From NCBI GenBank assembly GCA_039586795.1, contig JBDHJS010000012.1, forward strand, positions 16,709-80,708: a stretch of 64,000 nt of DNA, written 5' to 3'. Below, piece after piece: positions 53,401-59,400 of the stretch. Made by a program: the position numbers. Within the stretch, counting starts at the first letter, position 1; each line of letters starts with the position of its first letter. Origin of the DNA: Gemmatimonadota bacterium. GTDB taxonomy: Bacteria > Gemmatimonadota > Gemmatimonadetes > Palauibacterales > KS3-K002.

Positions 53401-56400
53401 CTACTTCCGGTCACCACGCCGTTTGATCCGAAGACCGGCGACATCGCTCCCGTTTCCTTCAGGGAGAACCTCCGCGCCTGGCTGGATACAGGCATCCATG
53501 GCTTTGTCATCGCCGGGTCCACCGGGGAAGCGCCGCTGCTCGATGAGTCCGAGGTCGTCCAGCTCGTCGAGCTCGCCCACGACGTCGTTCCACCCGAACT
53601 GACACTTGTCGCCGGTACCGGCGCCGAATCGACACGGGCCGTGGTTCGCATGGGCCGCGCCGTGGCCGCTGCCGGCGCGGATGCGGTACTTGTCCGACCG
53701 CCCGCCTACTACCGCGGGCGAATGGACGCGGAAACGGTTCGCCGGCACTACGAAACGGTGGCGGACTCGGTCCCGGTTCCGGTCATCCTCTACAACGTGC
53801 CACAGTTCGTACCCGTAGATATCACGCCGGGATTGTTAGCCGAGCTCGGTGCCCACGCCAACGTTGCCGGCATTAAGGACTCCACGGGCGACCTCAAGAA
53901 CCTGGGCGCGCTTCTGGATGCGGCGCCGGACGAGTGTGCCGTGCTGGTCGGCGCCGGATCGAAGCTCTACGCCGCGTTGGAGATGGGAGCTGCCGGCGGC
54001 ATCATCGCGGTTGGCTGCATCGCGCCTCGGGAGGCCGCCGATGTGTACACCAAGTTCCGCGAAGGCGAGATGGGGCCCGCTGGCGCCGTTCAGGGACGGA
54101 TTTCCGCACCGCATACCAAGATCGTCCGGGATATCGGGGTGGCCGGCGTGAAGTACGCCCTCGACCTCTTGGGCTACGTCGGCGGTTTGCCAAGAGCGCC
54201 TTTGCGACCGTTGGACGACAAGGCCCAGCGCGCGGTGCAGAAGGAGCTCAAGAAGGCCGGCCTCCTGTCAGAAGAGGCGAGTGCTTCGCCGTGACGGTAT
54301 GGACATTCTGATCTTTGTTCTCCTCATCGTCATATTCCTGGTCGGGTTGATCGTCATCCCGCTGGGACTCCCCGGTCTCTGGCTGATGGTCGTCGCCTTG
54401 ATCGGTTACGCGTTCATCGATGGTTTCACTCACATCGGCTGGGGAACGATCGCGCTTGTCGTAGTCTTGGCGGGAATCGCCGAAGCGCTGGAGGCGTGGC
54501 TCGGTTTCAAATTCGCGCGCCGCTTTGGCGGGTCGAAGCGCGCCGGCTGGGGCGCGTTGGTGGGCGGTCTCGTCGGCGCGATCGTAGGTACGCCGGTCCC
54601 GTTGATCGGAAGCGTGATCGGTGCGTTTCTCGGGGCGTTCATTGGTGCCGTGGTCTTCGAGTACATCGGTGGGTCGGAGCAGCGGAAAGCGCTGGGCGCG
54701 GGCTTTGGGGCGGTGCTCGGAAAAGCGGCGGGCGCGGCGACGAAGATCGCCGTGGGAATCATCATTGCGGTGATCGGGGTGTATTCGGCGCTTTGGTAAG
54801 GTTCGGGATTAGGGGAGCCGAGGGTGGTCGCTCGCTCCGGCCTCCCCGGCCAAACGGGTCCGACGCTATGTCGGGCCGTTTCTTTTGGTCACCCACCGTA
54901 CTGGCTGAGCGATACGAGCCGGGTCGCTAAAACCAGCTCCGCTCGTCGACCACCCTCGGCTCCCCCTCGCCCCATCCGTGGGCGTATCAGGTTACCGCGA
55001 AACCAGGTGTTTCCTCTGGGCGATCTCCATCGCTGGGTGGAGTACCTTGGTGGCCGGGGCTCTGTTGGCGCGACAACGGGAGCGCGGCAGGTCGGGGCCG
55101 GGGGACCGACGAGCGGAGCTGCCTTTGCGACCCGGCTCGAATGCCCACGCTACAAGGCAGGTTACCGCAGACGACGGTCCCGACGCAGCGTCGGACCCGG
55201 ATAGTCGGGGAGGCCGAAGCGAGCGGTCCCCCGGCCCCGACCAATAAACGACGAGCCCGCCAACGACTGCCTTGACACCCCCAAACCACCGATCTAGCTT
55301 GCTCCAAAGGAACCACGAAAACGGGCCCCCACTTGGGGGCATTTTTTATGAGGGCCATCGATGTTCAGCGACGATGTCCGTTGTTTGATTGTGGTCGGGT
55401 CCCAATGGGGCGATGAAGGCAAAGGGAAACTCGTCGATGTCCTGGCCAAGGACGCCGATTGGATCGCTCGTTTCCAGGGCGGCGCCAACGCCGGGCACAC
55501 GGTCAGGGTCGGTGAAGACGAGTTCATCCTGCACCAGATACCCTCCGGAATACTGTACGAGGGCAAGCGGTGCGTTCTCGGCAACGGGATGGTGCTGGAC
55601 CCCATCACGTTCTTCGAGGAGCTCGATGGGCTGATCGCCCGGGGCTACGACGTCGAGGGTCGGATCCACGTTAGCTCCAGGACCCAGCTGGTACTCGCCA
55701 CGCACAAGCTCCTCGACCAGGCCGAGGAAGAGAGCCGCGGCGCCTCGAAGATCGGGACCACGGGCCGCGGGATCGGCGCGGCATACGCCGACAAGGTCGC
55801 CCGGGTGGGTGTTCGCGTCGGGGATCTGGCGGCGCCGGAGCGGCTCGCGGAACTGGTGTCCGCGTCGGTGGACCGCGCCCGAAAGAAACTCCAGATTCTC
55901 GGCTCGAGCCGCGAGGTCGATGAGTCGGCGTTGATGGACGAGCTGTTGAGTCGGGCCGAACGGCTGACCGCTATGTCCGCCGACGTGGGAGCGCTCCTCA
56001 AGCAGGCACTGGATCGCGGTGAGAAGGCGCTGCTCGAGGGCGCCCAGGGTACGATGCTCGACGTCGATCACGGAACGTACCCGTTCGTCACCTCCTCCAA
56101 TACAACGGCGGGTGCCGCGACGACCGGGCTGGGCCTCGGTCCCACAACAATCGACGCCGTGCTCGGGGTGGTGAAGGCCTATACGACACGGGTCGGCGCC
56201 GGACCGTTCCCCACGGAGCTTCCCGAGGGCGAGGCTGCCCACCTTCGCGAGTTGGGGGCCGAGTATGGTGCGACCACCGGCCGGCCGCGGCGCACGGGGT
56301 GGTTCGACGCCGCCGTGGTCCGCTACGCCGGTCGCCTGAACGGGCTCACCGCCCTGGCGATCAGCAAGCTCGACGTCCTGGATACGCTTCCGGAGCTGAA

Positions 56401-59400
56401 GCTGGGCATCGGCTACCGCCTGGGCGACAAGCTGGTGGAGGAGTTCCCGGCGGACCTTACGGCGGCGTGTGAGATGGAGCCCGTCTATGAGACGATGCCG
56501 GGCTGGCAGGAGTCCACCGCCGACGCGACGACGTTGGAGGATCTTCCGGAAGCGGCCCGGGCGTATCTGGACCGGATCGCGGAGCTGACGGCGCTGCCGA
56601 TTCGCTACGTGTCCGTGGGCACGCGGCGGAAGCAAATCATCGACGCCGCGTCCTGAAGGGCGGGTGGTTGGGCGATACGAGCCGGGTCGCTAAAACCAGC
56701 TCCGCTCGTCGGTCCTCCGGCCCCTACCGGAACCTCTCGGAGCCCTAATCTTGTAAGCCCCGAAGCCCCAATCTCGTAATCACCGAATCCCAACAACCCG
56801 AATCCCAAGCCCTTGATAGAGTACCTGCGTTGGGGTAACTTTTGCGGCCTTTTAGACAATGGAACAGAGGATTCATGGCGACACGGATTAGACTACGTAG
56901 GGTTGGCCGGAAGAAGCAGGCATCCTTCCGGATCGTTGTGGCGGGCAGCATGCACTCCCGGGGCGGTCGCGTGACCGAGACCATCGGGAAGTACAACCCG
57001 CGCACCGAGCCGACCTTCATCGAGATCGACGAGAAGCGGGCGATCTATTGGATCGGCAAGGGCGCCCGGCTGAGCGGAAAAGTAGAGTCGCTCTTCAGGC
57101 AGACCGGCATCATGCGGAAGGTCGCCGAAGGCGCGGAAGGCGAAGGCGTCGTGACCATCGGAAGCGTGGATGGCAAGACGGTCCGGCCGCCGAAGCCGTC
57201 GGAGAAGAAGGCGAAGCAGAAGGCGGAGCCTGAGGCTGCGGCCGAGGTTGCTGCCGCGACCGAAGAGGCGCCAGTCGCTGAGGTCGCCGCGGAGGAGGCC
57301 CCGGTTGCCGAGGCCGCTCCCGAGGAGGCCGCTCCGGAGGAGGCGGCACCAGAGGAGGCCGCGCCCGCTGAGGCTGAGGCCGAGGCCGAGGCTCCAGAAG
57401 AGAAACAGGACGCAGAATAAAAGCTCGAGAATCTGACAGACCCCGTGATCAGCTTCTGATCGTCGGCGAGATCAGAAAGGCCCACGGGATCAAAGGCGAG
57501 TGCTTCGTGATGCCCGCGACGGATGACGTCGTGGGCATCTACGTAGAGGGACGTGAGTTCCGGCTGGGAGACGAAGAGGGCCAGCCCGCCAGCCCGGAGG
57601 CCACCTTCACTCTTACCGGCGTCCGGCCCTACAAACGCGGGGTGCTCGCGCGATTCGAGGAGGTCGCCGACCGCAATGGCGCCGAGGCCGTTCGCGGCCG
57701 CACTTTGCTTCTGGCCGCCGACGCCGTGCGTCCGCTGGACGAAGACGAGTTCTTTCTTCACGACCTGAGCGGCCTCGAGGTCGAGACCCGCAGCGGCGAT
57801 CGGATCGGAGTGGTGATCGAGGTCTACGAAGGCGGCCCGGCCTATCTGCTGGCCGTCGATGACGGCGAACGGGAGTTGCTGATCCCGTTCAGCGGCCAGA
57901 TGGTCGAGCGGGTGGATACTCAACGCGGTGTGATCGTCATCGATCCGCCACCCGGCCTCCTGGATCTCTGAGCGTTTGGCAGCGAGTCGCATGAAGATCA
58001 ACATCGTCACCATCTTCCCGGGCTTCTTCAACGAGGCGCTGACCCTCGGCATCCCCGGACGAGCCGGCCGGGCCGGCCTGGCCAGCTACCGCACCGTCGA
58101 TCTGCGCGACTACACCCACGATCGCCACCGCACGGTAGACGACGAGCCCTACGGCGGCGGCGCCGGCATGGTGATGAAGCCCGAGCCGTTCTTCGAGGCG
58201 GTGGACGACCTGAAGCCCCAGGGCCCCATCGTTCTTCTCGACGCCCGGGGCAAGGTCTTCCGGCACGAAGACGCCGTTCGCCTGTCGTTGAAGCCCGAGG
58301 TCACCTTCCTCTGCGGCCACTACAAGGATGTCGACTGGCGTGTGGCGGAAGGGCTGGCCACCGACGTCTTCTCGCTGGGCAACTTCATACTCTCCGGCGG
58401 TGAGCCCGCCGCCCTCTGCCTCGTGGACGCCGTAGTCCGACTGCTCCCCGGCGCCCTGGGCGATCACGAGTCCGCGGCCAACGACTCCTTTTATGAGGAA
58501 CCCCTCTTAGCGCCACCGGGCTACACCCGCCCCGCCGAATACCGGGGCATGGAGGTGCCCGAGGTCCTGAGGTCCGGTGACCATGCGGCTGTCGAAGCCT
58601 GGCGCCGCCAGGAAGCCGAGCGCCTTACTAGGGAAATGCGACCGGACCTCAGGGATTAGGGGATTACGAGATTCGGGGATTCGGGGGTTCTGGGATTGGG
58701 ACGGTCGACGTCCAATCGCCGAATCTCGTAACCGCCGAATCCCAGAACCCCAGAATCCCTCCCCCGGGTTTGACCTAAAGCGGGACCCGATTACATTAGG
58801 GGGCTTCCTAATTACACTACCGTAGTCGTGGGGGGATGTTGGAAATGGACGTACTACAGCAGATCGAGAAAGAGCAGCTGCGGAGCGACATCCCGGACGT
58901 CGCCCCCGGCGATACGGTGCGTGTCATGGTCCGCGTCCAGGAGGGCGAGAAGGTCCGTCAGCAGCCGTTCGAGGGTGTGGTGATCGCCCGTCGTGGTGGC
59001 GGCATGCGGGAGTCGTTCACCGTGCGTAAGGTGTCGGGCGGCGTCGGCGTCGAGCGGATCTTCCCCTTCAACTCGCCGGCGATCGCGGAGGTCAAGATCC
59101 TGCGGCGGGGCAAGGTAAGGCGCGCTAAGCTCTACTATCTGCGCAAGCTCCGGGGCAAGAAAGCTCGCATCAAGGAGAAGCGCGAGAAGTAAGGCCCGGC
59201 CCATGGGTCGCCGGGCCATCGCCCTGACCACCGAGCGCCGCTACTGGCGCGCCGGATTTCCTCACATAGCAGGTGTCGATGAAGTAGGCTGCGGCTGTTT
59301 GGCCGGCCCGGTCGTCGCGGCCGCCGTGGTGCTGCCAGTGGAAGGGCGCATCAAGGGCGCCGTCGACTCGAAGCTGCTGAGCGCCCCCCAGCGGAAAGAG

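Follow-up and report, generated by a model that had tools for sequence, protein, structure and literature searches.

The DNA analysed here, a 64,000-nt stretch of a Gemmatimonadota contig (the window), belongs to a member of the family KS3-K002 (genome G000: 4.7 Mb, 62% GC, 432 proteins with at least four predicted helices). In the window, a 218-nt spacer separates purA from rpsP, behind which lie rimM, trmD and rplS, and this spacer is too small for ffh (about 1.4 kb):

55361..56656, + strand: purA, adenylosuccinate synthetase; borders the vacated ffh slot on the left (PF00709, 560 bits; ORF list)
56657..56874, + strand: 218-nt spacer, the ffh slot of SRP-positive relatives, without ffh remnant (sequence)
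56813..56841, + strand: putative promoter of sigma-70 type for the rpsP operon (TTGATA, 17 nt, TAACTT)
56875..57420, + strand: rpsP (bS16), its C-terminal tail acidic; borders the vacated ffh slot on the right (PF00886, 62 bits)
57510..57971, + strand: rimM (PF24986, PF01782; gene call)
57991..58659, + strand: trmD (PF01746, 179 bits)
58836..59192, + strand: rplS (bL19) (PF01245, 164 bits)

The promoter-like pattern (TTGA, 17 nt, TAAnTT, the distance being constant) was recovered in most of the 24 family purA-rpsP spacers compared. Window positions 56587-57113 are identical in a 527-nt contig from a public run that is possibly related to the source sample. The two flanking genes were directly adjacent in 25 of 27 family loci, and none of the 27 family rpsP loci contained an Ffh match at E<=0.01. 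For the sister family, the order purA-(omp)-ffh-rpsP had been proposed; its second half was recovered, rpsP being next after ffh at 20 of 22 loci, but purA stood directly before ffh at only 7 of the 22.

The SRP (signal recognition particle) conveys membrane proteins, is near-universal, and is described as universally conserved and as essential in E. coli. The first-pass annotation had reported that Ffh, FtsY and SRP RNA are all missing from G000, and this was borne out by profile, tblastn, and sister-built profile and covariance searches, all of them negative. In six-frame searches of G000, PF00448 reached 15 bits at best, below the cut-off, and PF02978 had no match. The best tblastn hit of 30 sister Ffh/FtsY frames had an E-value of 0.005, and profiles made from the sister proteins scored at most 11.8 and 17.4 bits, against 403 bits for the control FtsY. 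SRP RNA was found in G000 neither with RF00169 nor with a covariance model built from the sister family. The ftsY slot (contig C18) is closed, a 660-aa gene stopping 18 nt ahead of recG. The first-pass annotation had stated that the absence is not an assembly gap; the ffs slot of G000, however, coincides with a contig break, between the end of C24 and the start of C96. It had also been stated that the 356 nt before dnaX hold no ffs; however, dnaX probably starts near C96:288 rather than 357, and it is in single-contig relatives that the ffs slot was seen to be closed.

The absence had been described as family-wide, and it proved so in a larger sample than the one first given: 31 genomes from 12 genera, four of them single-contig and all of them metagenome assemblies. 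Neither Ffh nor FtsY was found in any of the 31. PF02978 had no match in these genomes and PF00448 exceeded its cut-off in a single one, where the protein is an FlhF-like GTPase on a foreign-looking contig, in agreement with its earlier assignment to FlhF. RF00169 matched one of the 30 relatives of G000 within the family (G028), again on a foreign-looking contig. There the RNA adjoins a dnaX only 45-51% identical to those of order members, and a second, native dnaX of G028 (82% identical to that of G000) has no SRP RNA alongside. The sister-built covariance model, run without positive control, found nothing in five family genomes, and an Rfam scan of native dnaX loci was empty with the control detected. 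The ftsY slot ahead of recG was closed in 24 of 28 family loci. Control proteins were recovered from most family genomes (SecA in 30/31, YidC in 28/31, RpsP in 27/31), and the family formed a single clade in the PurA tree (support 97/93). In the sister family, SRP GTPases occur in 110 of 114 genomes and SRP RNA in 105 of 114. It is confirmed that ffh, ftsY and ffs were cleanly lost across the whole of KS3-K002, with every test in support.

KS3-K002 is not alone in its class. Two genera of another family (f6; 12 of its 251 genomes) also have no SRP, and in the SecY tree their losses were separate from that of KS3-K002. The SRP was therefore lost three separate times in one class. Nine other genomes of the phylum gave no match to the Ffh M domain. 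The two further SRP-less lineages, which the earlier account did not mention, raise the value of the observation, since the question of what allows SRP loss can now be put to three natural replicates. The three losses also suggest that the barrier to loss is low, as expected if existing machinery suffices.

We saw no remodelling of that machinery. The Sec translocon, SecA, SecDF-YajC, YidC and trigger factor are retained and a full membrane proteome is encoded. SecA, SecY, SecG, uL22, uL23, uL24, uL29 and trigger factor align with the sister proteins and show no family-specific domains. Three features put forward as possible compensation did not withstand the comparison with the sister family: the long SecA (1107 aa) has the same domains there and is 1105-1107 aa in SRP-positive sister genomes, the 138-aa SecG has the same length in the sister, and a single-copy YidC with a short basic tail occurs in both families. 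A bypass of the YidC2/Oxa1 type was rejected likewise, YidC being single-copy in all 28 family genomes with a match and its tail resembling that of the sister. An insertion present in many sister uL23 proteins is missing in the family, but also in several SRP-positive genera. A search for Get3/ArsA targeting with PF02374 brought up no full-length ATPase in G000, its matches being confined to the P-loop stretches of ParA and Mrp, and a 398-407-aa protein between yraN and dnaX, considered as a substitute for ffs, is missing from that position in G017 and G028.

The proteome was compared with one sister genome (G137; 2.0 of 2.9 Mb, crude gene caller and helix predictor). First-helix hydrophobicity was equal (2.19 vs 2.19, p=0.94) in 79 polytopic orthologue pairs, and helices and signal peptides had shifted neither to lower nor to higher strength (79 and 94 pairs). 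Membrane genes of both genomes contained slightly less T at four-fold sites, which speaks against uracil enrichment; a codon dip seen around the first helix of 40 orthologues (p=0.036 in one bin) was gone in the full set of 344. A synteny screen for insertions and deletions against the same 2.0 Mb (0.9 Mb missing; secD, yajC and secE outside) recovered the control ftsY and no other obvious targeting factor. Suppressors of an ffh null mutation in E. coli lie in IF2, IF3 and uS3 (PMC7844537). Among the equivalents compared (IF2 M454, IF3 P100, uS3 W22), G000 has the wild-type Met in IF2 and Trp in uS3, and IF3 was not located by motif. These unchanged residues, the lack of uracil enrichment or a consistent codon ramp, and a family-specific membrane protein encoded before secD sit uneasily with a plain bypass.

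That protein, of 117 aa, has two predicted membrane helices and a C-terminal CxxC..CxxC zinc ribbon that would be cytoplasmic; its gene lies between tRNA-Met(CAT) and secD. It was found in 10 of 13 family genomes tested (8 genera), in all 10 directly upstream of secD and on the same strand, and in 0 of 10 genomes outside the family. Of the three family genomes that do not carry it, one also has no secD and the others are 71% and 77% complete. Searches of seven sister genomes found no copy, and in an eighth the site ahead of secD did not contain it. Its sequence family is tiny, only 9 of 18 matches among 1.84 billion representatives extending beyond the ribbon, and its invariant residues are R6, R7, W84, P86, the four Cys and W117. 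The predicted structure (pLDDT 64) had no PDB match at E<=0.001, and its atlas matches were below 0.9.

We favour, with moderate confidence, the view that the SRP was lost and that membrane proteins are served by pre-existing back-up routes, which SRP-positive bacteria have as well, so that no dedicated replacement was needed; we infer this route from the fact that no compensation is visible. SecA would bind nascent chains where they leave the ribosome (uL23/uL24/uL29), ribosomes or mRNAs would dock directly on SecY and YidC, and slow growth and translation would make SRP-free insertion tolerable. Counterparts have been reported: SecA attaches to the ribosomal exit and brings RodZ to its target during translation (PMC8082313), SRP-free insertion proceeds from membrane-bound mRNAs via SecYEG/YidC (10.1101/2022.11.21.517368), and ffh deletion is survivable in E. 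coli once translation initiation slows (PMC7844537). Small changes in existing parts (the ribosome-binding surfaces of YidC and SecY, the SecA N-terminus, the 23S rRNA exit helices) that raise ribosome affinity seem unlikely, although YidC2 of Streptococcus mutans offers a precedent (10.1101/2022.11.21.517368). YidC tails have fewer acidic residues in the family (0-3 vs 3-5), with a few longer, more basic ones among them, and the SecY cytoplasmic loop (KKQGGF/NKQGAF) carries a family-specific N in 3 of 3 family sequences. However, the median net charge of the YidC tail is nearly equal (+6 in 17 family sequences vs +5 in 12 sister sequences, 11 of them from one genus), there is neither an Oxa1-like extension nor a second yidC, the SecY change is not common to the other SRP-less lineages, and the 23S rRNA exit helices were not found by motif search.

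We consider it quite improbable that a lineage-specific factor replaces part of the SRP, the 117-aa protein being a new holotranslocon subunit or a membrane receptor for ribosome-nascent chains. The fixed position of its gene before secD across 8 family genera, its absence from the sister genomes tested, its tiny sequence family and its invariant residues would fit such a role, as would the genus-specific gene among the sec genes of SRP-less Leptospira (PMC4758666). Yet the protein is missing in both tested genomes of the other SRP-less lineages, one of which has a murB-like gene before secD, and the gene adjoins a tRNA, a common insertion site. The gap to secD is 113-210 nt and contains TTGACA in G000, so co-transcription is not given. 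Moreover, two helices with a zinc ribbon are a frequent architecture among proteins of unknown function, orphan genes occur in every family, and the protein resembles no targeting factor. The wider proposal, combining three losses in one class with this protein serving co-translational targeting in the family as a non-homologous membrane receptor or a holotranslocon subunit, and thus the first natural bacterial SRP replacement, is more doubtful still. Finally, an SRP that is present but undetected, through extreme divergence or because it was left unassembled or binned away, is extremely improbable and largely refuted. All genomes are metagenome assemblies, the ffs slot of G000 lies at a contig break and one family bin does contain an SRP RNA; but three unlinked genes are missing from 31 of 31 genomes, single-contig ones included, the ffh and ftsY slots are physically closed at most loci, the RNA of G028 lies beside the foreign-looking dnaX, and P-loop searches down to E=1 gave unrelated NTPases only.

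Life without the SRP has known parallels. SRP-less bacteria, which the first-pass annotation did not mention, have already been described, and this lowers the surprise: Leptospira is reported to have no Ffh, FtsY or SRP RNA in the whole genus (PMC4758666). As in KS3-K002, all three components are gone lineage-wide and the Sec system is kept, and a lineage-specific membrane-protein gene among the sec genes was proposed as a helper (PMC4758666). In gene content, KS3-K002 matches naturally SRP-less bacteria of this type. For Leptospira, the authors invoke the thin spiral cell shape (PMC4758666). The two differ in phylum and in the inserted gene, which encodes a low-complexity single-helix protein in Leptospira and a two-helix zinc-ribbon protein in KS3-K002. 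Dehalococcoides and SAR86, also named as SRP-less (PMC4758666), share natural lineage-wide absence in free-living bacteria. The laboratory bypasses (E. coli suppressors, S. mutans YidC2, mRNA targeting) share SRP-free viability via SecYEG, YidC and slower translation, but these are mutants or back-up modes, whereas KS3-K002 has no second YidC and its IF2 and uS3 positions are unchanged in G000. Genome size also varies: Dehalococcoides and SAR86 have small or streamlined genomes, unlike G000 with its 4.7 Mb, and the SRP-less f6 genera (1.7-2.7 Mb) are closer to the streamlined type.

To our knowledge, the few natural SRP-less exceptions have neither a close SRP-positive sister for comparison nor an explained mechanism. 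KS3-K002, unlike Leptospira, can be compared with a densely sampled SRP-positive sister family, gene slot by closed gene slot. This uncultured sediment family, non-streamlined and membrane-protein-rich, stands with its 31 genomes beside a 114-genome sister that kept the SRP, which makes a natural comparison with concrete candidate genes (SecA, SecYEG, YidC and the orphan before secD). We found no earlier report of SRP loss in Gemmatimonadota in the literature. In this phylum, ffh and ftsY are unsafe as universal markers.

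In the source genome, the interval between purA and rpsP held no trace of ffh, and the first-pass annotation, according to which rpsP follows purA after 218 nt with no ffh, was confirmed by the spacer sequence and by the Ffh searches. The assembly comprises 4.68 Mb in 107 contigs, with 62% GC and a completeness rating of 97.8%; the window corresponds to C80:16709-80708. The features concerned in the window are as follows.

55361-56656, purA, left neighbour of rpsP
218 nt between purA and rpsP, spacer with no ffh remnant
56875-57420, rpsP, followed by rimM, trmD and rplS

A sigma-70-like promoter lies inside this spacer and recurs across the family spacers. 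The end of purA and the start of rpsP were bridged with zero differences by a 527-nt public-run contig, whose independence from the sample behind the source genome is uncertain. Within the family (KS3-K002), purA adjoined rpsP in 25 of 27 loci, with 83-222 nt between the matches; of the other two, one had a different upstream gene and one was a contig end, and no Ffh match was obtained at any of the 27. The sister order purA-ffh-rpsP stood in part: ffh preceded rpsP in 20/22 sister loci, but purA preceded ffh in only 7/22. Short imperfect GGATTCGGG/CCCGAATCC-type repeats, possibly a REP-like element, occur in intergenic spacers of the window (56700-56810, about 58670-58800 and about 50350-50400) and at C96:20-130 of the same genome, at the contig break before dnaX.

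The ftsY slot before recG was likewise shut, as had been claimed: a 660-aa gene adjoined recG in 24 of the 28 true recG loci of the family (two further rows being excluded as Mfd), whereas ftsY lay between these genes in 8/8 sister loci. The other four family loci were two contig ends, one broken recG and one different neighbour, and none of the 28 gave an FtsY match. Besides ftsY, the synteny screen recovered a second clean deletion in the source genome, a 138-aa gene of the sister genome G137 (L205:7025-7441) without match in the source genome, located between two genes that are adjacent there.

The SRP RNA model RF00169 matched 105/114 sister genomes, and the usual order in the sister was a yraN-like gene, ffs and dnaX. 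The emptiness of the slot before dnaX could be upheld only elsewhere in the family: in the source genome it falls on a contig break, unflagged in the earlier annotation, but it is closed in the single-contig genome G017, with the yraN-like gene and dnaX 144 nt apart. An Rfam scan at five native family dnaX loci gave no match (control positive), and a covariance model built from 24 sister SRP RNAs found nothing in 5/5 family genomes. The only SRP RNA in the family, in G028, lies upstream of a dnaX that shares 45-51% identity with those of other order members; a second dnaX in that bin is 82% identical to that of the source genome and has no adjoining SRP RNA. We read the contig with ffs and the distant dnaX (L043/L128, G028:C202) as foreign. 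In some genera, a gene with no NCBIfam match occupies the sister's ffs position directly before dnaX.

C24:92495-93691 of the source genome (also L129, L131 and L132), protein of 398-407 aa with a signal-like N-terminus

Sequence searches agreed with the gene order. PF00448, the GTPase domain of Ffh and FtsY, reached at best 15 bits in six frames of the source genome, below the cut-off of 22.7 (controls positive in 14/14), and tblastn with 30 sister Ffh/FtsY frames gave nothing better than E 0.005. Profiles built from sister Ffh and FtsY, the latter from eight FtsY and one truncated Ffh, reached 11.8 and 17.4 bits in the source genome; a control FtsY scored 403 bits. Among 31 family genomes (12 genera, 4 single-contig, 12 with completeness of at least 90%), the Ffh M-domain was found in none and PF00448 exceeded its cut-off in one, G029; the claimed family-wide absence of Ffh and FtsY holds. 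The G029 protein is FlhF-like: FlhF was its top-scoring model, although below that model's cut-off, and its gene is flanked by flhA-like and minD/flhG-like genes. These neighbours have no tblastn match in the source genome, and the block (L009, G029:C120) looks like a foreign contig in a family bin. The sister family exceeded the PF00448 cut-off in 110/114 genomes (111/114 at E<=0.001). Incompleteness fails to explain the gap, since SecA, YidC and RpsP were found in 30, 28 and 27 of the same 31 genomes. The sister genome G068 (L134; single-contig, 90% complete) has FtsY and SRP RNA and no Ffh match, probably an assembly gap.

It is practically certain that the loss of ffh, ftsY and ffs in the family is real. 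The 24 family rows of the PurA tree formed one clade (support 97/93), which makes one ancestral loss the simplest reading. In a sample of the phylum, the M-domain was present in 385/401 genomes, all at least 90% complete; this tally includes the unpublished G196, G232 and G289, all positive, on which the claim does not depend. Four misses belonged to two genera of f6, another family of the same class, in which PF00448 was missing from exactly 12/251 genomes, all 5 of g144 and all 7 of g133. In these SRP-less genera (genomes of 1.7-2.7 Mb, 47-57% GC at the purA-rpsP loci), purA adjoined rpsP in 4/4 loci checked (L170, L171, L173 and L174; G408, G446, G488 and G460), an f6 genome retaining SRP having the ffh-rpsP order; the f6 losses rest on PF00448 searches, the M-domain and this slot. 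In a SecY phylogeny with 33 rows (single gene, no bootstrap, three loci omitted; G407 labelled as retaining SRP despite an M-domain miss, G700 and G701 with a status not derived from a test), the loss label needed three changes, at KS3-K002, at g144, nested among SRP-retaining genomes, and at g133, the forcing branches having SH-aLRT of at least 95. The g144 and g133 losses would thus be separate from that of KS3-K002. Nine further genomes (G182, G312, G381, G404, G407, G474, G489, G506 and G513; 92-98% complete, fragmented) gave no M-domain match, representing either gaps or additional losses.

The SRP loss described here is real and family-wide, and is of a kind that has been seen before, though rarely, and that has no explanation so far. 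SRP is also missing from some ultra-small bacteria and archaea. Unusual in this case are the large genome, the SRP-positive sister family and the two further losses nearby. The family is likely free-living, and the public runs best covering the source genome were sediment metagenomes. Natural SRP loss is already known, since all Leptospira are reported in PMC4758666 to be without Ffh, FtsY and SRP RNA; Dehalococcoides and, apparently, SAR86 are also named there. No report of SRP loss in Gemmatimonadota was found in literature outside subscription. "SRP" and "signal recognition" are absent from the main text of two genome papers on the order (PMC10469786, PMC11316326), whose supplements could list SRP genes as absent and from which, together with the earlier annotation, the family and order names are taken. 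A term search of PMC8321541, PMC2905702, PMC7987157, PMC7775534 and PMC13721041 added nothing on natural loss.

The three SRP genes are deleted, the Sec/YidC apparatus is without remodelling and the membrane proteome is retained. None of the compensations suggested earlier survived comparison with the sister family: SecA (1107 and 1115 aa) is colinear with sister SecA (1105 and 1107 aa), SecG has 138 aa in both, and the single-copy YidC has a median net tail charge of +6 (17 rows) versus +5 in 12 sister rows, mostly from one genus. No new domain was seen in uL23, uL29, uL22, uL24, SecY or trigger factor of the family. Many sister uL23 proteins (L197, L200, L202, L310) bear a 15-21-aa insertion after a TEK motif, missing from KS3-K002 and from several SRP-positive genera. 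A comparison of the source genome with one sister genome covered 2.0 Mb of the latter's 2.9 Mb and gave 883 reciprocal best hits between genes predicted with a custom caller. Helix hydrophobicity was equal in 79 polytopic pairs and signal-like N-termini did not differ in 94; proteins with at least four predicted helices made up 432/3687 (11.7%) in the source genome versus 145/1566 (9.3%) in the sister. Neither uracil enrichment, a robust codon ramp nor Get3 was found in the source genome, and the residues of IF2 and uS3 altered in E. coli suppressors are unchanged. SecA at the ribosomal exit would target membrane proteins (compare PMC8082313), ribosomes or mRNA would dock directly on SecYEG and YidC (as 10.1101/2022.11.21.517368 suggests), and such targeting would be tolerated at slow growth (compare PMC7844537). 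We somewhat favour this combination of SecA, direct docking and slow growth. The repetition of the loss within one class fits a low barrier to it.

A candidate compensating factor, although an improbable one, is an orphan protein of 113-120 aa that is predicted to have two membrane helices and carries a zinc ribbon with four cysteines at its C-terminus.

C23:55448-55807 of the source genome (also L355:3001-3354), same strand as secD-secF, orphan gene directly upstream of secD-secF

Of 13 family genomes tested, 10, from 8 genera, carried it, in every case before secD; it was found in none of the 7 sister and 3 f6 genomes searched, two of the latter SRP-less. A tRNA-Met(CAT) preceded it in 9/9 loci scanned; adjacency to secD beside a tRNA is weak evidence for a role. 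Leptospira offers a parallel, with a genus-specific gene likewise among its sec genes. Family and fold searches gave no assignment. A search of 1.84 billion representatives gave 18 matches, 9 of which extended beyond the ribbon; named homologues were labelled Gemmatimonadota, one being Ca. Kutchimonas denitrificans, and one fragment was labelled Armatimonadota. The bin G020 contains two divergent tRNA-orphan-secD blocks (L351, L353), reflecting either two strains or a duplication.
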